Source: Eledone cirrhosa
Taxonomy: Eukaryota
DNA: 64,000 nt
Reading direction: 5' to 3'
Assembly: GCA_964016885.1 (NCBI GenBank)
Contig: OZ024744.1
Location: 41,168,001-41,232,000, forward strand
Positions 8,330 through 57,819 of this stretch are shown piece after piece. The stretch's first letter is position 1; each line of letters opens with the position of its first letter. The translations under genes and the position numbers were made by a program. The notes beneath the pieces were generated by a model. The model did no database searches. It had not been told where the DNA came from and saw nothing but the letters and a program-made list of their open reading frames with translations.

Positions 8330-9730
8330 TAAAATAACAGATTAAAGTTTGAGCAAAGAATCGCTGCGTCTTTACATGCATACCCATTCTTTTCGTTACC
8401 CTCTAAGAAGGAATATGACGTCACTTTCAGCTTTCTGGAGTCTAAAAGTTACACTGGGAGATCATGGGAAATAAAAGACCATGTGACCTCTGCGCCGCTG
8501 AGGCCCTGGAAATACTGTACGCCACAGACCACATCTTAAACAAAAAATCTGAGGCAATTTCGGCTTGTAAACATAAATTACACAAAACTTTCCTGTATTA
8601 CAGCCCCACATTATACCCTAACGGTTAGTACGATCTATACGTGGATATTCGACGTCTTGATGTGGTAGCTAAGTATATGTTATGTTTATACCATTACTTA
8701 TTTGCATAGGTAAGTATATATAACCTGTATGTGTTGTGAAGGTACGTTTACTTTCTCGTACGTATATTTGATTGTATATGTTATGGCGTATGATTTTATA
8801 TATTCTGGTACATATGGTTTGGTTATGTGTATACGGGAGTTTTGCGTCTGTGTGAGTATGCAGGTTCGTATGTATGTAGGGTGTGAGTATATGTGTACTT
8901 CATATTTTGGTTGACATACGTATCCGAACATTTGTGTATTTACATGTAGGTATGTGTGTGCGCTTGTTATATACGTATTTATTTATTTATATACGTTTAT
9001 TTATTTATTTATTTATTTATTTGTATACACGCACACACACACATATTTATATGTGCGTGGTTTTGTATACCTATGGCAAGTGTTTTCGCGTATGCTTGTG
9101 TATGTACGTATTTGTATGCGTGTATGTATTTATTTAATTTCTATTACCTCTGTATTGTATTTTTTTACTTTATTCTTAACTCTGAAGCGGAGATTCTTTC
9201 GGTTTCCTAGTTAGAATTTTAGTCTACGACTTCAGTTATACCATTTACGTGCATTTGTCTTTGCGTGAAATTGTTCTCCACGCTCCACATATGACGTATT
9301 ATCTTCGTTTTTTCCGTTCATTGCCAGAGAACGTCTCTATGAACCACCTAAGAGAATATTAGTCTACGACTTATTTTATACCATAAACGTGGTTCTGTCT
9401 TTGCGTGTAATTGTTTTTCACCGCTCCAAATAATGACGTATTATATTCGTTTTTTTCTGTTCTTTGCCAGGGAACGTTTCCACGAACCAAAGTATCGTCT
9501 TCCTGTCTTCCTCCGGTTGCAACGTTTTTTGAAATATTCACTTCTGCGTTCACAGATTGACTTTGTTAGTTTTTAGAAGATCCCGTTAAGGGTGAAAGCA
9601 TCGATTCTTTGCTTAAACTTTAATCTGTTATTTTAATAAATATTTGCTCTACGGTTCTTATATATTTGATATATATTTATCCTTATCGAGCCCTCTTTGG
9701 ATTTTAGTCTTCAAATTTATTATTATTACT
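8324..9730 (+). mobile_element. Penelope-like element 3' fragment (Neptune-type GIY-YIG end, pLTR, short 5' inversion)
   Basis: ~8467-8600 encodes GNKRPCDLCAAEALEILYATDHILNKKSEAISACKHKL (CxLCxxE..LNKxSE..CxH). 8324-8365 is an inverted copy of 9600-9645. Flanked by (TA)n; the same terminal sequence recurs at 31631-31935 and 52191-53128. Confidence 0.75.
9553..9627 (+). ncRNA. Full-size type I hammerhead-like motif with variant core
   Basis: CAGATTGA..AGTTT(T)-TAGAAGA-TCCC/GGGT-GAAA-GCA/TGC-TT-AAACT-TTAATCTG. Confidence 0.55.
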
Positions 9731-16109: not shown

Positions 16110-19100
16110 TTACAGACACATACTCAGAGAAGGCCCATTCATTCGGGCCATACTTGCTTCTCTCACCCATCTTTCAACAAAATGCTGGGAAGAGAGCACT
16201 TCCCTCTCTACCCTGATTTTCCTTTTCAAATGAAATTTGAAAAAGTTAATCAGGGCATCACCGAAGAGGCAAGTGCTCGTCTTCAGCCCTTTCAAACGTG
16301 TCCACCATACTATCTCTTTCGCCATGGCCACCAGACAGATAAAAACTGCCTGCCCTTCCAGGCTAAAGGAAGGGGGCGGGGCAATCCTCACGATGGACTC
16401 AGCTGATAGCCGGATCCGTCCTACACGTGACAGCAGGTGTTCGACATAAACCCACAAGTCAGCAATGCTCGGACACTGGACGAGTGCGTGCAGGACGGTT
16501 TCGTCGCCCTGCGCGCATCTCGGACATGCCCGGCTGACGGCACCTCCATGCCTGTAGAGTTTATCCCGAACTGGCAAAGCTCCTCGGTAGCACTGCCAGG
16601 CCAGGGATTTCTGGAAGTTGTCCATAGGCCCTGGCCCGAAAGTCCTTCCGAAGAGATTGGCTAGTTGATTTTCGTCGACGCCTAGAGTTTCTCCAAGTAC
16701 GTCGTCGCTCTTCCCCTCCACTAATCCCCTATAGAACGCCAAGGTGGAGTTTCCACCGATCACATTGCCCGATTGGTCGAGGGCTGTGAGCGCCTGAAGA
16801 CATTCCAGTCTCCAAGCGCTCCCTCTCGGTCTTCGCTTGACCCAGGACTGCAGCTCCGTCAAGGAGACGAGCTGGGGAAAAACGCGTCTTGCAAACGGCG
16901 ACCACACCTGATCACCGTCGAGGAAGAGGTGGAGATGTCGTAGCCTGAGCGCGTGTCTGCGCATCATCAGCCACGGCATGCCCAGCCCTCCACGTAGCGG
17001 GTGTTGACAGCAGATGGACCGCCTGACCATCGGAGCGCGTCCCTTCCACAAGAAGCGAAAGAGCAAACGCTCCAGCGCAGTCAGGCGGGGCTTAGGACAA
17101 GATACGACGGTCAGGCGGTAGTAGATGACGGATGCGATGTACGCATTCGCCACCTCCGCTCGACCTTTCAGAGATAGCTTCCTCTCGGCCCATTTCTGTG
17201 TGAGAGAAGCCACCCTGCTCGTCACGTCGTCCCAGTTTTTGTCCGTCTGGAGGTCTGGACCGAACCAGACCCCTAGCAATTTAACCGGTCCGTCCGTCCA
17301 GCGCCCGACGACGCTGTTGGACGGCATGGACCTGCCTCTCCAGGTTCCGAGCTGCAGGCCCACTGACTTTTCCTGGTTGATCATTGCTCCTGTCACCGCT
17401 TCGTATTCTCTTAGTGTAGTGCCGATCGCCTCGATGTGTTTGGCGTTCGACACCACTACGGTGACATCGTCGGCATATGCTGACAGGGATCTTCCGCATC
17501 CTAGTTCGCGCGGGACCCCCCTCAACGTCTCCAGTTTGTGCAGTAATGGCTCGAGAGTCAATACGTACAATAGGGACGAGAGGGGACATCCTTGGCGGAC
17601 CGAGCGCATGATGTTGAACGGTTCCGAAAGGTGACCGTTCACTCTCACTACAGAGCAGATGTCGCTGTGCATGGCAGCGATCCAGCCTCTGAAGACGGGC
17701 CCAAAGCCAGCCGCCCTCAGGACTGCCGTTAGGTAACGATGGTCGACCCTATCGAAGGCTTTCGACTGATCTAAATTGATCAAAGACCCACCCGTGCCAG
17801 GTTCCCTAGCTACCCTCTCTACGATGTATCGCATGAGGTGGAGGTTGTCGTGGATGGATCTGTCGGGAATGGCGCATGTCTGTGCCTCTCTCACCAGACC
17901 ACCAACGACAAGCGCCAACCTCTTTGCTAGCACCTTGGCCAAAATCTTGAACTCTGTGTTTAGCAGAGTTATGGGCCTAAAATTATCTATGTTATCCCCC
18001 TTGTTCGGATCCTTTCTCAGCAACGCCACCGCTCCTCGGCTCACAGAGCTGGGAATTCTCCCGTTCTGTTGCCAGTAGCAGTAGACGTCCGCCAAGAGGC
18101 CTCCGAACAAGTTTGGCATTTGTACGTAAAGTTCATAGGGCAGACCATCCAAACCAGGCGATTTACCCCTTGTGCAACTAGTCATTGCATCCCGTACTTC
18201 AGCGGTTGTTATCGGCTTTTCGCAACACTCCGCCTCAGTGGCCGAAAGCCGCGGCAGTCCGTCGAGGTAGACACTAAAGTCCATCCCTCGATCCGGCCCG
18301 CCACTGCCCCCGAACAGTTGAGCGAAGTATCGCTGAAAAGCTTCACACATTTGCCCGGGATCGAGTAGCATGCGCCCGTCGTGGTCCACCAAAGACCGGA
18401 TCGTGGCTTTGTTGCCACGACGCGCCTCCGCCACTCGGGCCCATTGAACGGCTTTCGTCCCCTCGTGTCTGAGAGCACGCACCCTAGCTCTGACAACGCA
18501 GCCTTCGTGCTTTGCATTGAAGAATTGGTCAAGGGCCAATTTCGCCGCAAGTACGTCGGTCGCGATGCCTCTGCTAAACGCCTCATCTAATTTTCTAACT
18601 AATTCTCCCTCTGCTCTATTTTTCTCTATTGCTAAAGTCTTACTAAACCTAATGGACTCTATTCTAATTGCTCTTTTCAGAGCAAACCACCACTTGTTGT
18701 TGACGATGGCCCCCGTCAACGCCCGCTTAACTAGTTCGCTAATCCGGTCTCTGTAGGCCTTGCGCGCTGGTAAGGACGCGTTTAGCTTCCAGTAGCCGGG
18801 TCCTCGTCTATGAAGCATATCTAAGTCAAGCACACAGATCACGAATTTGTGGTCCGTGTAGCTGACTATCTTGAATTGTGGACAGCCTATGCTAGACCTA
18901 TCTATTTCCCTACAAAATACTCTATCTAGATATGATCTGGATGACCCTATGCGATTTGTCCAAGTCCACATTGGTACATTCGGGAAATCCATTCGGTACC
19001 TGTCAGACAGTTCAAAACGTCTGAGCAGGTTGGTGAGACTCTTGCACCCTCCTTCCCTATCCACTAATCCCACACAATCCCAGCGTGCATCTAAGATCCC

Positions 19101-19529
19101 GTTCCAGTCGCCCACTAACACTAAAGAGCGGGACGTTCCAAGAAAGGTCTCCAGACGCCGGAAGAAATCAGGCCGCCCTGCTCCTGTCGGGGCATAGACG
19201 GCCACTAACCTGAAAGCTTGCCCGTCTCCGCTGGTCACGTCCAGCACCACCAACTTACCTTCTGGGTCCAGGAATATGGCCCGTATGGCAAGATCCAAAC
19301 CTCTCCGAAAAAGCACAGCAACTCCTCCCCCCGATCCCGGACGGCTGGGAGATGCGTACACATCGTAGCCGCCGAAGATCGGTGCGAAAGCCTGTGCTTC
19401 GGAGATTCTGGTCTCGCTGATGGCCACTACATCTATGTTTAGTGACCTGAGGTCGTTGAGCAGGTGGCCCTGCTTCCATGACGACCCCAAGCCACGCGCA
19501 TTTATGCTGCCTATTCTGAGTGAGGTCAT
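16110..19529 (-). CDS. Tx1 ORF2: AP endonuclease + reverse transcriptase + C-terminal CCHC, intact 1139 aa
   Basis: SINARGL, ISETR, VYAP, GDWN, SYLDRVF, YTDHK; [38 protein letters not shown]; CPRC..ETVLHALVQC. Confidence 0.95.
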   Translation of the reverse strand: MTSLRIGSINARGLGSSWKQGHLLNDLRSLNIDVVAISETRISEAQAFAPIFGGYDVYASPSRPGSGGGVAVLFRRGLDLAIRAIFLDPEGKLVVLDVTSGDGQAFRLVAVYAPTGAGRPDFFRRLETFLGTSRSLVLVGDWNGILDARWDCVGLVDREGGCKSLTNLLRRFELSDRYRMDFPNVPMWTWTNRIGSSRSYLDRVFCREIDRSSIGCPQFKIVSYTDHKFVICVLDLDMLHRRGPGYWKLNASLPARKAYRDRISELVKRALTGAIVNNKWWFALKRAIRIESIRFSKTLAIEKNRAEGELVRKLDEAFSRGIATDVLAAKLALDQFFNAKHEGCVVRARVRALRHEGTKAVQWARVAEARRGNKATIRSLVDHDGRMLLDPGQMCEAFQRYFAQLFGGSGGPDRGMDFSVYLDGLPRLSATEAECCEKPITTAEVRDAMTSCTRGKSPGLDGLPYELYVQMPNLFGGLLADVYCYWQQNGRIPSSVSRGAVALLRKDPNKGDNIDNFRPITLLNTEFKILAKVLAKRLALVVGGLVREAQTCAIPDRSIHDNLHLMRYIVERVAREPGTGGSLINLDQSKAFDRVDHRYLTAVLRAAGFGPVFRGWIAAMHSDICSVVRVNGHLSEPFNIMRSVRQGCPLSSLLYVLTLEPLLHKLETLRGVPRELGCGRSLSAYADDVTVVVSNAKHIEAIGTTLREYEAVTGAMINQEKSVGLQLGTWRGRSMPSNSVVGRWTDGPVKLLGVWFGPDLQTDKNWDDVTSRVASLTQKWAERKLSLKGRAEVANAYIASVIYYRLTVVSCPKPRLTALERLLFRFLWKGRAPMVRRSICCQHPLRGGLGMPWLMMRRHALRLRHLHLFLDGDQVWSPFARRVFPQLVSLTELQSWVKRRPRGSAWRLECLQALTALDQSGNVIGGNSTLAFYRGLVEGKSDDVLGETLGVDENQLANLFGRTFGPGPMDNFQKSLAWQCYRGALPVRDKLYRHGGAVSRACPRCAQGDETVLHALVQCPSIADLWVYVEHLLSRVGRIRLSAESIVRIAPPPSFSLEGQAVFICLVAMAKEIVWWTRLKGLKTSTCLFGDALINFFKFHLKRKIRVEREVLSSQHFVERWVREASMARMNGPSLSMCL

Positions 19530-19563
19530 GTTGAAAAGGAGTGGAAAAGATGGGAAAGACCAC

Positions 19564-21428
19564 TTACCTTACTTCTCGTAGGAGAAGGACGGCTTTTCCA
19601 TCCTTTTCACTGCTTGTGGCCTCCTCAGGAAGGATGTCCTTATAAATTTTCCTGGAGAGTGCTTGTCGGATGTCTTTGGGGAATTTTTGTTTTAGTGTCA
19701 TGTACGTTTTCTGTGTGATGCGAGTGATTTTTATGTGTGGAGGTGGTGTGAATTTTGGGGTTGTTGTGTAGTCTTTTTCTGTGATGCTGGTGTTGTGTTG
19801 GATGTAGTGTAATAATTGCTTGTTGTTCAAATTTAATGCTGTGTAGTGTGTATCGTTTTGGTTGTTTTGTTTTGTTTGCGTTTGTTGTGGGTTTGTTTCT
19901 GTTTCGCATTTTGGTGATTTTTTGTGGTGTAGGTGATGGTGGTGTTGGAGTTAATGATGGTGATGGTGTTGGTGTTTGGGTTGATGGGGTTGGTGATGCT
20001 GGTGTGGATGGTGGCATATCTGTCCTAACTTTTTTGTTTCTTAGTTTATTTGTTTCCCTCTGTATTTTGTTTTTGGAGGGGGAAGGAAGAGAATTTTTTC
20101 TTTTTTGGTTTCTCTTTTTTTTCCGGATATCGTTTCCCACTCCTCGTCGTCACAATGGTGTTGTTGGTTTTGCTGGTGGTGGTAGTGGTGTTGGTTTTGC
20201 TACTGTTGCTGGGGTTGTTGCTGTTATAGTTGCTTCTGTTGTTGCTGCTACAGTTGTTGCTGGCATCTCTGCTACTGGTGGTGTTGATGGTTGTGTCACT
20301 GGGGTGGGTAGGAGAGGTGGCCTCAACCTTTTAACCTGAGGGCAGAAAGCCCTTAGGTGGGTTCCTTCACCACAAACGACACACCTAGGTCTTCTGCCCT
20401 CGACAATTACCGTGAGGTGGCTGCCGTCAGTGAGGTCTATTACCTCTGGGATCTCCTCAATGCTTTTTTGGTCCGCTTGGATCAGGAGCTCCATCCCAGA
20501 TCCGGACCAGTTTTCCTGCTTTTCTTTTGCTATTGTTATTATTTTCGTGTTGGCCTCGATGCCGGCGATGACAGCCGCTATTAGCCAGGGAATTTCGATG
20601 GCCGGTGGAACGTGGGTCACCCTGATCTTTACGAGTCTCTGGCCACAATAGCTTGGGACGAGTGTGAAGTCGTCACTTTTTAATGGGGCCATGGAGTGTT
20701 CTCTAGCCTCCTCTGGTGTTTCAAAGAACACATCCACGGTTCCATACTTTTGCCCACGTCTGATGTGGGTTTTTCTTTCCCACACATGTCCCAAAGCTTT
20801 TTGGATTTGGGACTCGGATGCCCGTTCCACTCGGCGCGATTTTACATTTATTGTTCTATACGACACGGTGCATAGGCGCCGATGCTCCATTTTATTAGGT
20901 GGGGGGGGGGGGAGGCTGACCCTGTACCCATCTTTCTTTACCATTTGTTTGGCATTTTCTAAATCTTCTTGAGTTACCGTGAACGCTTCGAATTGTTTTG
21001 CTACGATGGCGAAACTGAGGGTCGGTTTTATAATGTCATTGTTGTTGTTGTTGCTATCGTTAATATTAATTTTATTTTCAGTTGTGGTGGTGGTGACGTC
21101 AGTCGTCTTTGGTGGGGAAGAGTCCATTTTGCTTGATTTCATTTCGACGTCACGAGTTAATTTATTTTTTTCTTCTTTTGTTTCTGTTGTCGCGGTGGTG
21201 GTGGTGGTGGTGGTTGTCGCGGTGGTGGTGGTGGTGGAGGGTTTAACACCTGCAGTCATTGGTAATGGCGGGAAATGAATGTCTGCCTGAGACAAATTTA
21301 AAATATTGCTACTGCTTATATTTTTTTTGTTTGGCAAACGTAGTAACATTTACAATGGTGGTGTCGGTGTGAGGTGTTATTTTGTGAGGAAGGCTTTCAG
21401 CTGCTTCGTGCAGAGGGGAATTAGCCAT
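19564..21428 (-). pseudogene. Tx1 ORF1 (gag-like, zinc knuckle), frameshifted
   Basis: ATGGCTAAT start at 21428; main frame 20150-21349 has CVVCGEGTHLRAFC (CX2CX4HX4C); continues through frameshifts to ...LLLREVR* just before ORF2. Confidence 0.8.
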
Positions 21429-21755: not shown

Positions 21756-24700
21756 GAGAACGGAGGAACCACCCGAAGCAGACAATGATCTGAATACTGA
21801 GATAAATAATACCTGGAACAGAGATACGGCCACTGAGGAGATGAATGCTGACGGGCTAGGACAAGATTCGGTTGACATCCTAAATTTAGTGGTAGATAAG
21901 TTGAACAATGATAGTGGGAGACCTATGAACCTAAGATTTGTAGACAGGAAAAAGTTAAAAGAAACAACAGCTAAGGTAAACAAAGTCATCCCATACCTTG
22001 AGGCGAGGAGTCTTCACCAGTGCAACAATATCCTCAAATCAACAGCAAATACGGTGAGGAAACTACTTGGTATAAAAGCGAGAGGAAACAACAGACAAGA
22101 AAGAGCAGAGCCGTGGTGGAAGAAGCGACTGAGTGGGCAAATCGGGGAAATGAGAAATGACATAGGAAAGCTTGAGTCACTACTGAATGGGACACTAAAA
22201 AACATAGGCACTAAAAATAGACTGGAAATAAAATACAAAACTAGGAGTAAAAAGCTAAATATTATCATAGAGGAATTGAAGCAACGCATTGTAGCAAAGA
22301 GTGCCAAAATCAGGCGATACGAGAACAGAGTCAGTCAGTATAAACAGAACCGCATGTTCGACAACAACCAGAAGATGCTGTTTGGACAGCTTGAGGGGAA
22401 AGAAAGAGGCAACGACTTGATCCCTGGGGCGGAACAAGCTAAAACATTCTGGAGAGGAATATGGGAGCAGGATGTTAGACACAATGCCCAGGCAGGGTGG
22501 ATTGAGACAGTACAGAGGGAGATCGGTGAGCAGGCACAACAACAGACTGATTTGAGTATCACAGTTGAAACTCTTAAGGGGCAAGCCAAAAAACTAACTA
22601 ACTGGAAATCACCAGGCCCAGATGGTGTGCAGGGGTATTGGATTAAACATTTAACATCCCTCCACCCGAAGCTGACGGCCATGTTCAATGACTGCTTGGT
22701 GTCGGGTGAGGTGCCAGAGTGGTTGACAAAAGGTACCACAGTTCTGATAATGAAAGACCGAATCAAGGGTAATGATGTTACCAACTATAGACCTATCACA
22801 TGTCTGCCCGTAATGTGGAAACGGTTGACGAGCATTGTGTCTGAGGAAATCTACCATCACCTCCACACAAACAACTTGTTACCGGACGAACAGAAAGGAT
22901 GCCGAAAGAAGTCACGTGGTACAAAGGACCAGTTGCTTGTTGATAAGATGGTAATGGGGAATTGCAGGAGGAGACACACTGATCTTGCCATGGGATGGAT
23001 AGACTACAGAAAGGCATTTGACATGGTGCCTCATTCCTGGATCACCAAAAGCCTGGAGATCTTCAGGGTGGCAGATAACATCAGACAGTTGCTGGGCAGG
23101 AGTATGGGGTCCTGGGAGACAGAGTTGACATCAACTGGAGTATCCTTGGGAAGCGTGAAGATCAAGAGAGGTATCTTCCAGGGAGATAGCCTGTCCCCTC
23201 TGTTGTTTGTCCTTGCCCTGATGCCCTTGACCATTATGCTGCGAAAAGTGAGAGCAGGATACAAGTTGGGAAGGGGAGAGCTTACCATCAATCACCTCCT
23301 CTTCATGGACGATCTTAAGCTCTTCGGGAAAAGTGAGAAGGAGTTGGATGTGCTTGTTGACACTGTCCGTATTTTCAGCAGTGATATATGTATGCAGTTT
23401 GGTATTGGTAAATGTGGAGTCATTGTGATGAAGAGGGGTAGGTTGAGCAGAAGTAACGGGATCCAGATACCAACAGGTGAGATGATAAAGGAAATTGACT
23501 CTGAGGAAGGATACAAGTATTTGGGCGTTCTGGAGGCTGATGGCATAAAGAACAAAAAAATGAAGGAATTGTTAAGAACTGAATACATTCGGAGAGTAAG
23601 GAGCGTATTGAAGTCACATCTGAACAGCAGAAATGCCATAAGCGCAGTAAATTCCCGAGCTGTGTCTATTATTAGGTACAGTGCGGGAATTCTGAGATGG
23701 AATGTTGCTGAACAGAAAGAAATGGATAGGAAGACTAGGAAGCTATTGACTATCTACAACATGTTCCACAAGAGGAGTGATGTCGATAGACTCTACCTAA
23801 GGAGATCTGAGGGTGGAAGAGGTCTTATCAGCATAGAGGACTGTGTTCAGATGGAGAAAAACAACCTATACAAATACGTGACCTATAGTAAGGAGCCAAT
23901 GCTCAGAACTGTACTGAAGGAGGGGACAGTAGGCCAGGGGATGTCCAAGGAGGAAATAACATCAAGGAGGAAGAGCAGCCTTAAGGGAAAATCCCTTCAT
24001 AGTACCTTCTTTGAGAAAACTGAATTTAGAGATCCACAGACATGGAACTGGTTGAGAAGAGGAGACCTCAAAAAGGCTACAGAAGGAATGGTAATGGCTG
24101 CGCAGGAGCAGGCCCTCAAAACGAAGTGGTTGAAGCACCATATCTACAAGGAGGAGGCTAGCCCACTGTGCAGGATCTGTGGAGAGAGAGAGGAGACTGT
24201 GGCTCACATTGTGTCCGAGTGTAAACACCTAGCCCAGACCCACTATAAGGGCTGGAGACACGATGTGATGGGCAGGGTGATCCACTGGCACCTGTGCAAA
24301 GTAAACAATCTACCACATTCTGAGAAATGGTATGAGCATAGGCCAGAGGCGGTGATGGAGAACAGTCAGGTGAAGGTGCTGTGGGATTTTAGGATACAGA
24401 CGGACAAAAAACTGGAACACAATAGACCTGACCTGGTGGTTGTGGACAAAGAAAAAAGATCGTGCCTGATTGTGGATGTGGCCTGCCCGTTCGACACGAG
24501 AGTGCAAGAGAAGGAGAGGGAGAAAATTAACCGATACCAGGACCTAAAGTGGGAAGTGAAAAGGATTTGGAACTGCCATGAAGTCAAAGTGATCCCGATT
24601 GTCATAGGCGCACTGGGGACTATCTCCAAAGGTTTCCAGGGATGGTTAAAGAAAATCGGCCCCTTCACGCTTTTTGGAACGCTTCAAAAGGCATGCTTGC

Positions 24701-24820
24701 TTGGAACAGCAAGAACCCTCCGATACGTCCTGAATATCTGAGGCTGCAGGTAGTGGCTTGATATTCAATCCAACGGATTTTCCAGTTAACCAACATCAAT
24801 GACTGAGATTCAAGGAATAG
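21756..24820 (+). mobile_element. R4/Dong-type RLE non-LTR retrotransposon, 5'-truncated, (AAT)n tail
   Basis: Starts mid-ORF (matches 26338 onward of the next copy); short 3' UTR followed by (AAT)n. Confidence 0.9.
21841..24741 (+). CDS. RT + CCHC + restriction-like endonuclease (uninterrupted, N-terminally truncated)
   Basis: KSPGPDG, YRPITCL, IDYRKAFD, GIFQGDSLSPLLF, LLFMDDLK, YKYLG, GGRGL, CRICGEREETVAHIVSEC, RHD, RPDLVVVD..IVDVACP..K..RY. Confidence 0.92.
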   Translation: MNADGLGQDSVDILNLVVDKLNNDSGRPMNLRFVDRKKLKETTAKVNKVIPYLEARSLHQCNNILKSTANTVRKLLGIKARGNNRQERAEPWWKKRLSGQIGEMRNDIGKLESLLNGTLKNIGTKNRLEIKYKTRSKKLNIIIEELKQRIVAKSAKIRRYENRVSQYKQNRMFDNNQKMLFGQLEGKERGNDLIPGAEQAKTFWRGIWEQDVRHNAQAGWIETVQREIGEQAQQQTDLSITVETLKGQAKKLTNWKSPGPDGVQGYWIKHLTSLHPKLTAMFNDCLVSGEVPEWLTKGTTVLIMKDRIKGNDVTNYRPITCLPVMWKRLTSIVSEEIYHHLHTNNLLPDEQKGCRKKSRGTKDQLLVDKMVMGNCRRRHTDLAMGWIDYRKAFDMVPHSWITKSLEIFRVADNIRQLLGRSMGSWETELTSTGVSLGSVKIKRGIFQGDSLSPLLFVLALMPLTIMLRKVRAGYKLGRGELTINHLLFMDDLKLFGKSEKELDVLVDTVRIFSSDICMQFGIGKCGVIVMKRGRLSRSNGIQIPTGEMIKEIDSEEGYKYLGVLEADGIKNKKMKELLRTEYIRRVRSVLKSHLNSRNAISAVNSRAVSIIRYSAGILRWNVAEQKEMDRKTRKLLTIYNMFHKRSDVDRLYLRRSEGGRGLISIEDCVQMEKNNLYKYVTYSKEPMLRTVLKEGTVGQGMSKEEITSRRKSSLKGKSLHSTFFEKTEFRDPQTWNWLRRGDLKKATEGMVMAAQEQALKTKWLKHHIYKEEASPLCRICGEREETVAHIVSECKHLAQTHYKGWRHDVMGRVIHWHLCKVNNLPHSEKWYEHRPEAVMENSQVKVLWDFRIQTDKKLEHNRPDLVVVDKEKRSCLIVDVACPFDTRVQEKEREKINRYQDLKWEVKRIWNCHEVKVIPIVIGALGTISKGFQGWLKKIGPFTLFGTLQKACLLGTARTLRYVLNI

Positions 24821-25749: not shown

Positions 25750-28700
25750 TCTGGGGCTCTTTCTGCCTGTGTGTTTGTTTGTTTATGTGTGTTCGTATAC
25801 AGCGTGGCGATAATGCCACACAAGGGCCAAGTGGGATGGCGGATCCACAGATGGCTATGTAAACATACATTCGCCAATCCTCGATAAGAGTGTTTAAATA
25901 TCGAACATAAACAGTTCGAATAACGGTGAAATGGAGACTAGAACGTCATGTGACAGACTCTCACCCAACAGGTGCCCCCTGGCTCAGCAGCAGGAACCTG
26001 ACTGTCAACCAAATACTGCTGATGTTGGAGGAAGGAGAAGAAGGAAAGGGGCCAGAACCAACTGGACGAAAGAATTGAATAGAACTGTTATGCAATGCTA
26101 CCTGAAAAGTAACCCCAAGGAGAGGGGCTACAGGAGACGGATGCATAACATCTGGAACGAGATTGGTTTATTTAAATTAGATGAACAAAAATTGGCCGGG
26201 CAGGCTCGGGTAATAAGAACTAATGGGTGGATAAGCGAGCTGGAACTGGAGGAACTGAGCAGAGAGAATGGCTTGGAGATGGCGGGTGTAGTATGCCAGA
26301 CAAGCGAGCCGGTGGGAAATGAAGGTGAGGAGGTCCTGAGAACGGAGGAACCACCCGAAGCAGACAATGATCTGAGTACTGAGATAAATAATACCTGGAA
26401 CAGAGATACGGCCACTGAGGAGATGAATGCTGACGGGCTAGGACAAGATTCGGTTGACATCCTAAATTTAGTGGTAGATGAATTGAACAATGATAGTGGG
26501 AGACCTATGAACCTAAGATTTGTAGACAGGAAAAAGTTAAAAGAAACAACAGCTAAGGTAAACAAAGTCATCCCATACCTTGAGGCGAGGAGCCTTCACC
26601 AGTGCAACAATATCCTCAGAGCAACAGCAAATACGGTGAGGAAACTACTTGGTATAAAAGCGAGAGAAAACAACAGACAGGAAAGAGCAGAGCCGTGGTG
26701 GAAGAAGCGACTGAGTGGGCAAATCGGGGAAATGAGAAATGACATAGGAAAGCTTGAGTCACTACTGAATGGGACACTAAAAAACATAGGCACTAAAAAT
26801 AGACTGGAAATAAAATACAAAACTAGGAGTAAAAAGCTAAATATTATCATAGAGGAATTGAAGCAACGCATTGTAGCAAAGAGTGCCAAAATCAGGCGAT
26901 ACGAGAACAGAGTCAGTCAGTATAAACAGAACCGCATGTTCGACAACAACCAGAAGATGCTGTTTGGACAGCTTGAGGGCAAAGAAAGAGGCAACGACTT
27001 GATCCCTGGGGCGGAGCAAACTAAAACATTATGGAGAGGAATATGGGAGCAGGATGTTAGACACAATGCCCAGGCAGGGTGGATTGAGACAGTACAGAGG
27101 GAGATCGGTGAGCAGGCACAGCAACAGACTGATTTGAGTATCACAGTTGAAACTCTTAAGGGGCAAGCCAAAAAACTAACCAACTGGAAATCACCAGGCC
27201 CAGATGGTGTGCAGGGGTGTTGGATTAAACATCTAACATCCCTCCACCCGAAGCTGACGGCCATGTTCAATGAATGCTTGGTGTCGGGTGAGGTGCCAGA
27301 GTGGTTGACAAAAGGTACCACAGTTCTGATAATGAAAGACCGAATCAAGGGTAATGATGCTACCAACTATAGACCTATCACATGTCTGCCCGTAATGTGG
27401 AAACTGTTGACGAGCATTGTGTCTGAGGAAATCTACCATCACCTCCACACAAACAACTTGTTACCGGACGAACAGAAAGGATGCCGAAAGAAGTCACGTG
27501 GTACAAAGGACCAGTTGCTTATTGATAAGATGGTAATGGGGAATTGCAGGAGGAGACACACTGATCTTGCCATGGGATGGATAGACTACAGAAAGGCATT
27601 TGACATGGTGCCTCATTCCTGGATCACCAAAAGCCTGGAGATCTTCAGGGTGGCGGATAACATCAGACAGTTGCTAGGCAGGAGTATGGGGTCCTGGGAG
27701 ACAGAGTTGACATCAACTGGAGTATCCTTGGGAAGCGTGAAGATCAAGAGAGGTATCTTCCAGGGAGATAGCCTGTCCCCTCTGTTGTTTGTCCTTGCCC
27801 TGATGCCCTTGACCATTATACTGCGAAAAGTGAGAGCTGGATACAAGTTGGGAAGGGGAGAGCTTACCATCAATCACCTCCTCTTCATGGACGATCTTAA
27901 GCTCTTCGGGAAAAGTGAGAAGGAGTTGGATGTGCTTGTTGACACTGTCCGTATTTTCAGCAGTGATATATGTATGCAGTTTGGTATTGGTAAATGTGGA
28001 GTCATTGTGATGAAGAGGGGTAGGTTGAGCAGAAGTAACGGGATCCAGATACCAACAGGTGAGATGATAAAGGAAATTGACTCTGAGGAAGGATACAAGT
28101 ATTTGGGCGTTCTGGAGGCTGATGGCATAAAGAACAAAAAAATGAAGGAATTGTTAAGAACTGAATACATTCGGAGAGTAAGGAGCGTATTGAAGTCACA
28201 TCTGAACAGCAGAAATGCCATAGGCGCAGTAAATTCCCGAGCTGTGTCTATTATTAGGTACAGTGCGGGAATTCTGAGATGGAATGTTGCTGAACAGAAA
28301 GAAATGGATAGGAAGACTAGGAAGCTATTGACTATCTACAACATGTTCCACAAGAGGAGTGATGTCGATAGACTCTACCTAAGGAAATCTGAGGGTGGAA
28401 GAGGTCTTATCAGCATAGAGGACTGTGTTCAGATGGAGAAAAACAACCTATACAAATACGTGACCTATAGTATGGAGCCAATGCTCAGAGCTGTACTGAA
28501 GGAGGGGACAGTAGGCTAGGGGATGTCCAGGGAGGAAATAACATCAAGGAGGAAGAGCAGCCTTAAGGGAAAACCCCTTCATAGTACCTTCTTTGAGAAA
28601 ACTGAATTTAGAGATCCACAGACATGGAACTGGTTGAGAAGAGGAGACCTCAAAAAGTCTACAGAAGGAATGCTAATGGCTGCGCAGGAGCAGGCCCTCA

Positions 28701-31633: not shown

Positions 31634-31935
31634 ATAATAATAAATGTGAAGACTAAAATTCAAAGAGACCTGATAAGGATAGATATATATCAAATTTATA
31701 AGAACCTTAGAGAAAATATTGTTCTCATTGCTGACGTATTATCTTCGCTTTTTCCCGTTCATAACCAGGGAACGTCTTCATGAACCAAAGCATCGTCTTC
31801 CTGTTTTCCTTCGGTTGCAACGTTTTTCGAAATATTTACTTCTGCGTTCACAGATTGATTTTTTTAGTTTTAGAAGATCCCCTTAAGGGTGAAAGCAGCG
31901 ATTCTGTGCTTAAACTTTAATCTGTTATTTTAATA
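31631..31935 (+). mobile_element. PLE pLTR fragment with inversion and variant HHR (31851-31924)
   Basis: Homologous to 9290-9730; flanked by (TA)n. Confidence 0.75.
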
Positions 31936-31947
31936 TATATATATATA

Positions 31948-32825
31948 CAAAATAATTTGGAGATAATTATAAAGAATTAATATATCTAGTAACATATATA
32001 TACACAGATGCATACTTATGCTAGCAAATATATAGGTTTTGTCTTAGTAACTTTGTGGTTCAATGCATGGGGATGCAGAACAATAATATGAGAGACGTAA
32101 AATAAAAAAATTATAAAATTAACTCACTAAAATTTCACTCCAACTAATTAGTTTCTGAAAGGGAATAAACATAGTTTCCGAAGAAATTATTGTTCTGCAT
32201 CCCCATGCATTGAACCACAAAGTTACTAAGACAAAACCTATATATTTGCTAGCATAAGTATGCATCTGTGTATATATATGTTACTAGATATATTAATTCT
32301 TTATAATTATCTCCAAATTATTTTGTCGAGCAAAAATTGGCCAAAACTGCTACTATAGTAACGGTCCGGCTGCTGTCTTCTTAACAAACCATTCTTCACT
32401 GATTGACCTCGATGTCACGTGACTGATTCTTTTGAATTTGCCACCGACGCAGTAGGCAGTGATTTTTTCAATGGCTTGGAATTTAGTCCACGCTTTGCTT
32501 TTTTCCATCCACTGAATTATTTTTGTATAAGTTCCCTGTGTCCACGTATTGCCTGGAAACTTAGCTGAGAATAGACTTCCCTGATGACGAAAGGCTTCTC
32601 CGTACGTTTCTTCGGAAACTATGTTTATTCCCTTTCAGAAACTAATTAGTTGGAGTGAAATTTTAGTAAGTTAATTTTATAATTTTTTTATTTTACGTCT
32701 CTCATATTATTGTTCTGCATCCCCATGCATTGAACCACAAAGTTACTAAGACAAAACCTATATATTTGCTAGCATAAGTATGCATCTGTGTATATATATG
32801 TTACTAGATATATTAATTCTTTATA
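31948..32825. repeat. ~520-bp unit with terminal redundancy plus upstream inverted copy (PLE/retrozyme-like)
   Basis: 32187-32305 is repeated directly at 32707-32825; 31948-32186 is the reverse complement of the unit end and start. Confidence 0.75.
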
Positions 32826-38064: not shown

Positions 38065-38143
38065 CATATTACAATTGTTTCAATATCAATCAGCTCAGGG
38101 TACAATCAATATATATATATATGTCAACATCTCATCAGATATG
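38065..38143 (-). ncRNA. Inverted hammerhead copy, stem II loop replaced by (AT)n
   Basis: Reverse complement of the stems and core of 38178-38264. Confidence 0.6.
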
Positions 38144-41809: not shown

Positions 41810-41891
41810 TAGAATTGACATGGAGGGTTTGGGGTTTTTCTCACATCTGAGAATATATATAAGTAGTAACACAACAGTTAGTTCACCATAC

Positions 41892-41930
41892 CAAGAACAA
41901 TTGTTTCACCTTATGCAGATCTTCAGCTTG
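41892..41930 (-). ncRNA. Minimal type I hammerhead within an inverted repeat (~41865-41995)
   Basis: CAAG-CTGAAGA-TCTGCATAAGGT-GAAA-CAATTG-TT-CTTG; truncated mirror copy at 41933-41967 (+). Confidence 0.7.
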
Positions 41931-42077
41931 TACTGAAGATCCACATAAGATGAAACAAATGTTCTTGGTATGGTGAACTAAATGTTGTGTTAGTATTTCT
42001 ACCAAACACGTCCCATGGACTGAGTGCTCTACTGCTACGGATATTACCTTACAGTGTTCTATCTTTATATTTATATA

Positions 42078-47059: not shown

Positions 47060-47410
47060 GATAAACCTACACACAAACATAATATCAGTTCTTTGCTTAA
47101 CATATTTAGACATTGCATCAATATTTCAGACTTTTCGGCTAGATATAAATTGCATCTCATTGATCTATTGGAATATGGTGTTGCAGTTTCAAGAATGCTT
47201 CAGTTTATATGAATCTTGTCAATCACATTATATTTCAGTTTCCAGGTGTATTGAGATAGAAAGTGGAGTTAATTAAATTTCTGGATTTAATAGAGTGGTT
47301 GAGTTGTATAAGTTTAATTTTCCATAGGTTGCTTGGAGAGCTCATGGTATTTTACGAAAAACGTGTGTGAATGAGACCAAAGGTACATACTTGGAGCATG
47401 GGTGCTCAGG
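47060..47410 (-). mobile_element. PLE (Neptune-type) GIY-YIG C-terminal relic
   Basis: Minus frame: QYTWKLKYNVIDKIHIN*SILETATPYSNRSMRCNLYLAEKSEIL. Confidence 0.65.
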
Positions 47411-52194: not shown

Positions 52195-53128
52195 ATAATA
52201 ATAAAATTGAAGACTAAAATCCAAAGAGGGCTCGATAAGGAAAATATATATCAAATATATAAGAACCGTAGAGCAAATATTTATTAAAATAACAGATTAA
52301 AGTTTAAGCAAAGAATCGCTGCTTTCACCCTTAACGGTTTCAGAAGTTCCCGCTAAGGGTGAAAGCAGCGATTCTTTGCTTAAACTTTAATCTGTTATTT
52401 TGATAAATATATATATATATATATTAAAGATTAAGCAAATAATCGCTGCTTTCACCCTTAACGGGATCTTCTGAAACTAACAAAGTCAATCTGCAAACGC
52501 AGAAGTGGATATTTTAAAAACCGTTGCAACCGGAGGAAGACAGGAAGACCATACTTTGGTTTTGGAGCGTGGAGAACAATTGCACGCAAAGCGGAGATTC
52601 ATTCGGTCTCCTAGTTAGAATTTTAGTCTACGACTTCTGCTATACCATTTACGTGGTTTTGTCTTTGCGTGCTATTGATCTCCACGCTCCACATATGACG
52701 TATTATCTTCGTGTTTTTCGTTCATTGCCAGAGAACGTCTCTATGAACCACCTAAGAGAACATTAGTCTACGACCTCTTTTATACCATAAACGTGGTTCT
52801 GTCTTTGCGCGTAATTGTTTTTCACTGCTCCTATTAATGACGTATTATATTCGTTTTTTCCCGTCCAGGGAACGTTTCCACGAACCAAAGTATCGTCTTC
52901 TTGTCTTCCTCCGGTTGCAACGTTTTTTGAAATATCCACTTCTGCGTTTACAGATTGATTTGTTAGTTTCAGGAGATCCCGTTAAGGGTGAAAGCAGCGA
53001 TTCTTTGCTTAAACTTTAATCTGTTATTTTAATAAATTATTTACTCTACGGTTCTTATATATTTGATATATATTTATCCTTATCGATTTCTCTTTGGATT
53101 TTAGTCTGCAAATTTATTATTATTACTA
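52191..53128. mobile_element. Cluster of inverted PLE pLTR fragments with three variant HHR motifs
   Basis: Homologous to 9180-9730; motifs at 52336-52394 (+), 52424-52493 (-) and 52951-53023 (+). Confidence 0.8.
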
Positions 53129-53212
<84 letters not shown>

Positions 53213-54778: not shown

Positions 54779-54821
54779 AATATAATATAAGATCAAAAGA
54801 TGGTTAAAGGAGTTCCATGTA

Positions 54822-54888
54822 TTTTATTATGCGCATTTCAAAAACAAACATCATCATGCAATAATATTTGTGTTTTCATCAGATAAAA
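54822..54888 (-). ncRNA. Type I hammerhead ribozyme (mirror copy)
   Basis: Reverse complement of 55002-55068. Confidence 0.75.
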
Positions 54889-55001
54889 CAGGAGAACATG
54901 ATATGAAGGCTAAAAAACACTTGTGGATAGTGCAGTTTTAAATCAACATATCAACTGCACTATCCACAAGTGTTTTTTAGCCTTCATATCATGTTCTCCT
55001 G

Positions 55002-55068
55002 TTTTATCTGATGAAAACACAAATATTATTGCATGATGATGTTTGTTTTTGAAATGCGCATAATAAAA
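55002..55068 (+). ncRNA. Type I hammerhead ribozyme with 36-nt stem II
   Basis: TTTTAT-CTGATGA-AAACACAAATATTATTG/CATGATGATGTTTGTTTTT-GAAA-TGCGCA-TA-ATAAAA. Confidence 0.8.
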
Positions 55069-55489
55069 TACATGGAACTCCTTTAACCATCTTTTGATCT
55101 TATATTATGTATACTCCAGTCCTACAAACTGTAGAGTGCTTCTTATCCGATATCTGCATTGCTTTATTGTACTACAATAAAACTCACCTCCTACATTATA
55201 TATAAATATATATATATATATAAACATATATATATATATAAATATATATAAATATATATATATATAAATATATATATATATAAATATATATATAAATATA
55301 TATGTCGATAAATCTACCAAAATATACGGTAGTGTCCAATCCGTATGAATAACTCAATGTAATCCGAATATCATGAAAAGAGATGTATTCAAAAAAATTT
55401 TTCGGTGAAAAATAACGGAAAACAGAGTCAAGATAAATTAATAAAATAATGAATAAACAAAGAAACAGTTCCTTATATTAAAAAATTCA

Positions 55490-57108: not shown

Positions 57109-57819
<711 letters not shown>

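Follow-up and report, generated by a model that had tools for sequence, protein, structure and literature searches.

The window, as we call the whole 64,000-nt stretch of Eledone cirrhosa DNA that was analysed, contains copies of a hammerhead-like motif with A at core position 4, belonging to a repeat that we term the A4 family. A 30-mer spanning the 3' strand of helix II, the GAAA, helix III and the cut site matched the window at six places with at most three mismatches (9590+, 31887+, 52301-, 52357+, 52428- and 52986+), compared with none in 100 shuffles. Region 52200-53130 has four part-copies of a single repeat, which form two inverted, head-to-head pairs with (TA)n between them.

The motif at 52424..52493 (minus strand, core CAGAAGA) is part of a short, 5'-truncated element copy at about 52424-52583 on the same strand; it has one mismatch in proximal stem I (AAACU>AAUCU) and runs out into (AT)n ahead of the distal 3' strand of stem I. 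Its inverted partner, a complete-length motif at 52950..53024 (plus strand), comprises distal stem I (ACAGAUUGA/UUAAUCUGU), a 6-nt bulge, proximal stem I (AGUUU/AAACU), the core CAGGAGA (with A4 and the private change A6>G), helix II (CCC/GGG with a flanking U.U) followed by GAAA, and helix III (AGCAG/UUGCU), with the predicted cut between 53010 and 53011. At position 52973, the contigs of all four public runs compared have A, not G. This motif scores -0.5 bits against the clade covariance model R1 described below, and is held in a 5'-truncated element copy at 52584..53128 (plus strand) that, on comparison with locus L031 (9430-9900), consists of 3' UTR only and ends with an optional tail of about 110 nt (...TTATTATTAC) within (TA)n. 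In the other pair, the plus-strand motif at 52337..52395 (core CAGAAGU: A4, A9>U) is 5'-truncated inside stem I, and at about 52335/52336 it meets, head-to-head, the 3' half of a motif on the minus strand; this sixth part-copy (52292..52335) retains only the part from loop II to the 3' strand of stem I, and continues as tail sequence toward 52200.

The two remaining motifs are on the plus strand. The one at 9552..9628 (core UAGAAGA: A4 and C3>U, G8 uncompensated) has G>U in helix III, and the element copy around it extends upstream as far as the end of the endonuclease coding region (8367-8625) and downstream, with the tail included, to about 9717, where (TA)n follows. The one at 31850..31925 (core UAGAAGA: A4, C3>U) has a helix III mismatch, the T-rich bulge typical of the older of two subfamilies, and a short 3' end in (TA)n. 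Each copy in the window has a lesion of its own, be it a core substitution (C3>U, A6>G or A9>U), a truncation, or a mismatch in stem I combined with a missing distal 3' strand, and no A4-family copy in the window passes our hammerhead descriptor, whereas typical family copies do, such as that in locus L016 (helix I of 5 bp, helix II of 3 bp and helix III of 5 bp). The original prediction had been of five copies with a hammerhead-type fold, the one at 52336 being 5'-truncated, and of A at core position 4 in all of them; reading of the sequence bears this out for the fold, for the truncation (inside stem I, at 52337), for A4 in all five window copies that retain the core, and for the core strings TAGAAGA (9553 and 31851), CAGAAGT (52337), CAGAAGA (52424-52493) and CAGGAGA (52951), and adds the sixth part-copy (52292-52335, minus strand).

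The host element

When copies in other loci were followed upstream, they led to the end of an ORF with RT motifs and a GIY-YIG endonuclease, and three full-length copies have in common a 3.18-kb unit with an intact ORF of 709 aa, specifying RT plus a C-terminal GIY-YIG domain. These open frames (L157:2346-4472, L158:2334-4460 and L159:2387-4513) lie in copies 96-98% alike in DNA, the L157 frame having been translated and the other two being open by ORF listing, and the A4 family is possibly still active. Genome-wide, 41,004 first-look candidates were obtained with 138 aa of the protein, and the family numbers tens of thousands of copies. These are 5'-truncated at many points, often arranged as inverted pairs and sometimes in tandem, all of which are habits of Penelope-like elements (PLEs).

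No Pfam family was matched by the protein, either as 600 or as 709 aa, and its affinities were judged by comparison of motifs. As described in the survey of Craig et al. 2021 (PMC8557442), the Hydra clade has DKT for DKG, RWK, a CxCX5C linker, no CCHH, and CxxC and CxH around conserved E and N residues, in short single-ORF elements that lack CxC and IFD, have a C-terminal GIY-YIG domain and target (TA)n. The A4-family protein has DKT (HSDKTGN, continuing as HSDKTGNLY), a linker of the CxCX5C form (CNCRNRADC), CxxC and CxH around the conserved E and N (CDLCAAEALE...LNKK...CKH), and an endonuclease (IVYKCKV...AYIGLT) with a single Cys between IVY and YIG, CCHH being absent with its second Cys missing; other motifs are FIQFDI..YSSI, GLYRDDGL and CWFNPPYN. 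Its N-terminal RLRWR (in RLRWRAF) is RWR rather than the RWK of the Hydra clade, and the unit of about 3.18 kb, with its single ORF and C-terminal GIY-YIG, slightly exceeds the 'generally <3 kb' of that clade owing to a long 3' UTR. As to targets, 18,306 copies pass from a short 3' end directly into (AT)n, and long-tail and 5' ends also abut (TA)n. Where the clade has a canonical 3' hammerhead, the motif here is at the right place but has A4. On the motif comparison and on visual likeness to the published alignment, we assign the host element to the Hydra clade. A Neptune-type PLE had been proposed for it; that it is a PLE holds, but the Neptune clade, described as having a CX2-5CxxC linker and CCHH in the endonuclease (PMC8557442), is ruled out by the CxCX5C linker and the lack of CCHH, and DKT, CxxC...CxH and (TA)n likewise speak for the Hydra assignment.

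The motif lies about 915 nt past the stop codon and, in tandem copies, the predicted cut site is 159 nt ahead of the next ATG. The 3' UTR has grown to this length through microsatellite DNA and 140-bp tandem-repeat DNA. At L007:285-1419, within the family 3' UTR, the unit of about 140 bp forms a tandem array of at least six, ordinary copies having two diverged units. Another local peculiarity is found at L016:479-583 (minus strand), where a copy of the motif has about 16 T>C changes and one T>G within 105 nt on the element sense strand, a pattern of clustered hypermutation.

Architecture and ancestry of the motif

Read from 5' to 3', the family RNA consists of ACAGAUUGA (distal stem I), a U-rich bulge of 6-8 nt, AGUUU (proximal stem I), the core CAGAAGA, U-CCC-GUUAA-GGG-U (helix II with its flanking U.U), GAA, AGCAG-CGAUUCU-UUGCU (helix III) and U | AAACU-UUAAUCUGU, which is the cut site followed by the 3' strands of stem I. 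The topology, as read from the sequence, is that of a type-I hammerhead, with three helices, helix I open, and the order I-5', core, II, GAAA, III, UH, I-3'. In the family majority sequence, six of the seven core residues C3 U4 G5 A6 N7 G8 A9 match, position 4 being A, and G12 A13 A14, A15.1-U16.1 and H17 at the cut site are all present (GAA-A...U-U|A). There are two departures from the textbook core: A4, and a U.U mismatch in place of the G10.1-C11.1 pair that closes helix II. The second of these, U10.1.U11.1, is a known active natural variant (PMC3088659).

The window belongs to a 3.0-Gb genome, in which we counted all sequences conforming to the exact context AGTTTC[x]GANGATCCCNTTAAGGGTGAAAGCA. 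Among 18,767 such copies, position 4 is A in 18,575 (99.0%), T in 78, and C or G in 114. T4 is therefore no commoner than other point mutants, and masters with A4 are indicated by its being at the level of C4 and G4 together. With anchors placed outside the motif, 10,907 matches were found, and the first 100 listed, read by eye, comprised 99 with A4, one with C4 and none with T4; the majority sequences of both subfamilies read CAGAAGA; and contigs from four public runs, representing three organisms, have no alternative letter at 10% or more at position 4. A4 is fixed in all subfamilies. That it was present in the transposing master, as had been suggested from the local copies, is upheld by the genome-wide counts, the anchor-based sample and the subfamily majorities, and the CUGA consensus that would have contradicted it is absent. 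A subfamily with CAGGAGA (G6), which a biased sample had suggested, was represented by none of 100 copies in the anchor-based sample. As canonical-core hammerheads occur in the same genome (see the last section), the A4 state is specific to this family and not a host-wide property.

How does this motif relate to the hammerheads of other Hydra-clade elements? We collected 79 metagenomic loci encoding proteins at about 40% identity to that of the A4 family, and searched them with a descriptor that leaves position 4 free. This found 66 type-I hammerheads on the coding strand of 55 of the 79 loci, 65 with CUGANGA and one, a doubtful case, with CCGAAGA (raw descriptor hits numbered 88 on the plus strand and 20 on the minus). 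A covariance model for the clade (R1), built from 48 of the relatives' hammerheads, matched 67 of the 79 loci, with 85 matches in total, and had T at position 4 in 84 of 84; position 10.1 was T in 41 and G in 37, and position 11.1 was T in 50 and C in 32. The relatives' hammerheads, a sample picked by a pairing descriptor, show strong covariation, being 90.4% paired compared with 62.1% after shuffling and scoring 0.716 against 0.195 (0/500). In the published Hydra alignment (PMC8557442, File S2), all 26 rows, from 25 families, read ctga, with a t...t pair in at least 14. The relatives' cut site is a median of 152 nt ahead of the ATG (85-391, n = 22), close to the 159 nt of the A4 family, and their motif is a median of 134 nt past the stop codon. 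Strand, place, type-I topology, U10.1.U11.1, GAAA, A15.1-U16.1 and the UH cut site are all common to the A4 motif and the relatives. From this agreement, which extends to idiosyncratic details, it seems nearly certain that the A4 motif descends from the Hydra-clade hammerhead, and it is best described as a derived U4A form in which helix III is longer and helix I is extended and has a bulge.

The published canonical Hydra-clade hammerheads (PMC8557442, File S2) allow the comparison to be extended. Their elements resemble the A4 family in that they have one short ORF, with a CxCX5C linker and GIY-YIG at its C-terminal end, and target (TA)n, and the motifs resemble the A4 motif in being of type I, near the 3' end and on the sense strand, with frequent U10.1.U11.1, GAAA, A15.1-U16.1, and U or A at the cut site. 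In contrast, they have a CUGANGA core instead of CAGAAGA; their helix III is of 3-4 bp with a loop of 1-3 nt (in the relatives, too, it has these dimensions and is mostly palindromic), compared with 5 bp and a non-palindromic 7-nt loop in the A4 family; the A4-family helix I, of 5 bp, a 7-nt bulge (6-8 nt across copies) and 9 bp, is longer than in the relatives; the 3' UTR ahead of the motif is about 50-500 nt rather than about 915 nt; and the A4 family stands apart from them in its copy number of tens of thousands. The minimal, dimer-dependent hammerheads of metazoan PLEs (Cervera and de la Pena 2014, PMC4209133) are likewise in a repeated 3'/5' region (pLTR), have low or uncertain activity outside the cell, and provide core exceptions (U3-A8), but their helix III is of only 0-2 bp and G10.1-C11.1 and U4 are conserved, whereas the A4-family helix III is predicted to be stable in a single copy. 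A real stem III and a bulged stem I, unlike those of minimal PLE hammerheads, had been part of the original prediction, and both survive comparison with the relatives and the published families.

No Rfam hammerhead model matched at E<=10 in the window, a 121-nt piece, the 3' 2.1 kb of the element or four natural T4 copies, but Rfam also misses, at E<=0.001, the canonical hammerheads in 18 relatives' loci and in two loci of the second family described in the last section, so its silence on the A4 motif says little. With R1, natural T4 copies of the family reach 12.0 bits (E about 1.1) and A4 copies give no match at E<=10; the longer helix III loop and bulged helix I contribute to these low scores, besides A4. 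Folding is not discriminating (minimum free energy -16.3 kcal/mol, z-score -1.0; the hammerhead pairing, at -13.5 kcal/mol, lies 2.8 above the minimum), and variation within the family is too uniform for covariation, sampled copies being 93-100% alike and the subfamilies differing inside the motif only in the bulge.

Constraint, cleavage and the template RNA

Since dead copies are uninformative about selection, we compared the majority sequences of the two subfamilies, one from 38 younger copies (bulge CTTTGTT and similar) and one from 21 older copies with the T-rich bulge, which are on average 17% from their own majority sequence. Between the two majorities, 16 of 150 directly upstream positions differ, compared with none of 69 motif positions outside the bulge (Fisher p = 0.0035); inside the bulge there are two substitutions and one indel. 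If only the eight strongly supported upstream differences are used, p is 0.059 two-sided (about 0.05-0.06 with strict calls, the majority calls coming from 59 copies). C3, G5, A6, G8, A9, G12-A14, A15.1-U16.1 and H17 are intact in both subfamilies, the lack of change in about 13 unpaired core positions being in itself not significant at 10% divergence. The comparison is suggestive of an active lineage that kept the fold, A4 included, while the unpaired bulge drifted.

What might the substitution do to cleavage? It seems likely that U4A weakens or abolishes it. Changes of U4 reportedly led to large losses of activity in a core mutational study of 1990. Mutagenesis of a hammerhead with tertiary stabilisation is described as giving low activity whenever one or two bases of the CUGA U-turn were changed, except in the C:G swap (PMC9901934), and U4 contacts the A6-N7 phosphate (PMC3088659); on the other hand, it is a suggestion of Perreault et al. 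that variant cores can be offset by such stabilisation (PMC3088659).

Genomic copies give some indication of the state of the RNA that was copied. Their 5' ends show no excess at the predicted cut site (167, compared with 137 at one control site 4 nt upstream). Their 3' ends fall into two classes, a short one (18,306 copies) that runs through ...UUAAUA(AAUAU) into (TA)n 24-33 nt past the predicted cut site, and a long one (11,449 copies) with the tail of about 110 nt, ending about 135 nt past it; where copies are in tandem, the tail runs directly into the 5' UTR. All of the approximately 29,800 copies that have the 3' strand reach beyond the cut site, which implies that the template RNAs were uncut at the motif when copied. 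There is a parallel in the Poseidon PLE PAc of Anolis, where two internal reverse-transcription start sites give rise to an optional tail, so that, as in the A4 family, two classes of 3' end are found downstream of a hammerhead and the template copied is uncut (PMC11167929). In that system, ribozyme mutants had no effect on insertion in vitro, activity thus being dispensable there, and the hammerhead cleaved only when protein was added (PMC11167929). PAc differs from the A4 family in belonging to another clade, in having a tail of 30-40 nt rather than about 110 nt, and in its hammerhead, whose core is canonical and which overlaps the start codon (PMC11167929).

Together, the published activities of CUGA mutants, the lack of a 5'-end excess, the uncut templates and the constraint between subfamilies point to a ribozyme crippled by U4A, whose fold persists within a 3' recognition or priming region, a reading to which we give a probability of about one-half. 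In our best explanation, the change of U to A at position 4 would lower catalysis, and the fold would be retained just upstream of two presumed places of reverse-transcription start, where it might serve for recognition or priming by the protein of the element; a weak ribozyme beside the priming sites would then spare the template RNA.

A purely structural role, however, leaves unexplained why about 18,600 copies, and both subfamilies, should have the remaining core residues and the cut-site context intact. This intactness, and the invariance of the motif outside the bulge while its flanks diverge, would be in keeping with a working ribozyme, in which the longer helix III, the extended and bulged helix I or the element's protein compensates for A4, and which processes tandem or read-through transcripts as has been proposed for other PLEs. 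A helix III of 5 bp with a 7-nt loop and a helix I of 5 + 9 bp could offset a variant core, and active natural core variants are known, U10.1.U11.1 included, in which tertiary contacts are thought to provide the offset (PMC3088659). Moreover, PLE hammerheads can need the protein of the element, as with the added protein needed by Poseidon (PMC11167929), so rules established in vitro may not transfer. We nevertheless regard a working A4 ribozyme, the main rival to our reading, as unlikely: the comprehensive mutagenesis, as reported, yielded no active single or double CUGA mutant other than the C:G swap (PMC9901934), the retention of U4 by the relatives (84 of 84 in R1 matches, 65 of 66 by descriptor) and by all 25 published Hydra families argues against A being equivalent, and the genomic ends, with no excess at the cut site at the 5' side and an extension past it in every copy with the 3' strand, are not what would be expected of it. 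It is possible, though doubtful, either that the A4 hammerhead works without the U-turn uridine, rescued by its helices or by protein, or that an attenuated ribozyme was selected because the sparing of the template near the priming sites let the family expand.

That the motif is a dead relic without present role, which owes its apparent conservation solely to the youth of the family and to the copying of the 3' end at every insertion, appears improbable: 5' truncation does cause 3' ends to be over-represented among copies, strict majority calls do make the test of constraint borderline, and the folding energy is unremarkable, but the motif is unchanged between subfamilies outside the unpaired bulge while the upstream sequence is not, and the divergence of the older copies from their majority implies that there was time enough for change in the master lineage. 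Finally, a chance look-alike without hammerhead ancestry, which the failure of Rfam at E<=10 and of R1 to reach significance on family copies might suggest, is very improbable in the face of Rfam's equal failure with the relatives' canonical hammerheads, of the agreement in ATG distance, strand, topology, U.U, GAAA, A15.1-U16.1 and UH with 67 of the 79 relatives and all the published Hydra families, and of a descriptor background averaging 0.16 hits per simulated window.

If the motif is indeed a crippled ribozyme, it would be an example of a ribozyme fold retained for another job; if it proves active, the known sequence space of the hammerhead core would be widened. There is no settled view of the role of hammerheads in PLEs: most PLE clades have them universally and Naiads lack them, their activity in vitro is weak, and one in vitro system could dispense with it for insertion. 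In the A4 family, a Hydra-clade lineage with intact 709-aa ORFs has reached tens of thousands of copies with a substitution at a highly conserved hammerhead position. Massive proliferation and (TA)n insertion without a canonical hammerhead core are also described for the Naiad and Chlamys PLEs (PMC8557442), but Naiads have an N-terminal endonuclease and, as described there, at most isolated core strings, whereas the A4 family keeps the three-helix architecture and differs in one core base. The family thus makes two natural tests possible, one of whether cleavage in a tertiary-stabilised context is abolished by U4A and one of whether retrotransposition needs cleavage, and there are natural controls in the same genome, in the form of the 78 T4 copies of the family and the canonical core of the second family (5,848 exact copies). 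A literature search for a PLE hammerhead fixed for A4 found no report ('U4A' gave only unrelated papers). The published Hydra survey used a cuganga descriptor (PMC8557442), with which an A4 motif would have been missed.

Other hammerheads and repeats

The second abundant family has the motif CCUGAAGAUUGCGAAAGCAUGAAAGUACU, with a canonical core, a U.U pair and 5,848 exact copies in the genome. Its motif (for example L031:7491-7531, minus strand) is a minimal hammerhead with a GAAA tetraloop in helix II and a palindromic helix III (AGUACU), often paired in inverted orientation at a spacing of about 110-130 nt; six loci of 3 kb yielded no coding part. In the window, a canonical minimal hammerhead with a palindromic helix III (CUGAAGA ... 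GAAACAAUUGU) is located at 41890-41932 on the minus strand, and scores 18.1 bits with R1 (E 0.017); the repeat in which it lies forms a hairpin, and has a 3' flank (GGTATGGTGAACTAACTGTTGTG) that is likewise found after an A4-family copy in L016. Further CUGAUGA...GAAA motifs that pass the descriptor are at 38138 (minus) and 38183 (plus), at 54882 (minus) and 55008 (plus), and at 32581 (plus), the first four making up two inverted pairs, and the arms 54800-54900 and 54990-55090 are identical over 100 nt. These additional motifs probably belong to other PLE or retrozyme-like repeats.

A different PLE, not of the A4 family, is represented at 47074-47259 (minus strand) by an endonuclease fragment that shares 43-51% identity with two Hydra-like proteins from metagenomes. 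Three long open frames at 16110-19568 (minus), 21757-24741 (plus) and 25898-28519 (plus), all having RVT_1, are those of LINE-like retrotransposons, the first having Exo_endo_phos and zf-RVT as well. Finally, a tRNA-like match at 57501-57564 (plus strand; Rfam tRNA, 32.9 bits, just over the gathering score) adjoins an AT microsatellite.
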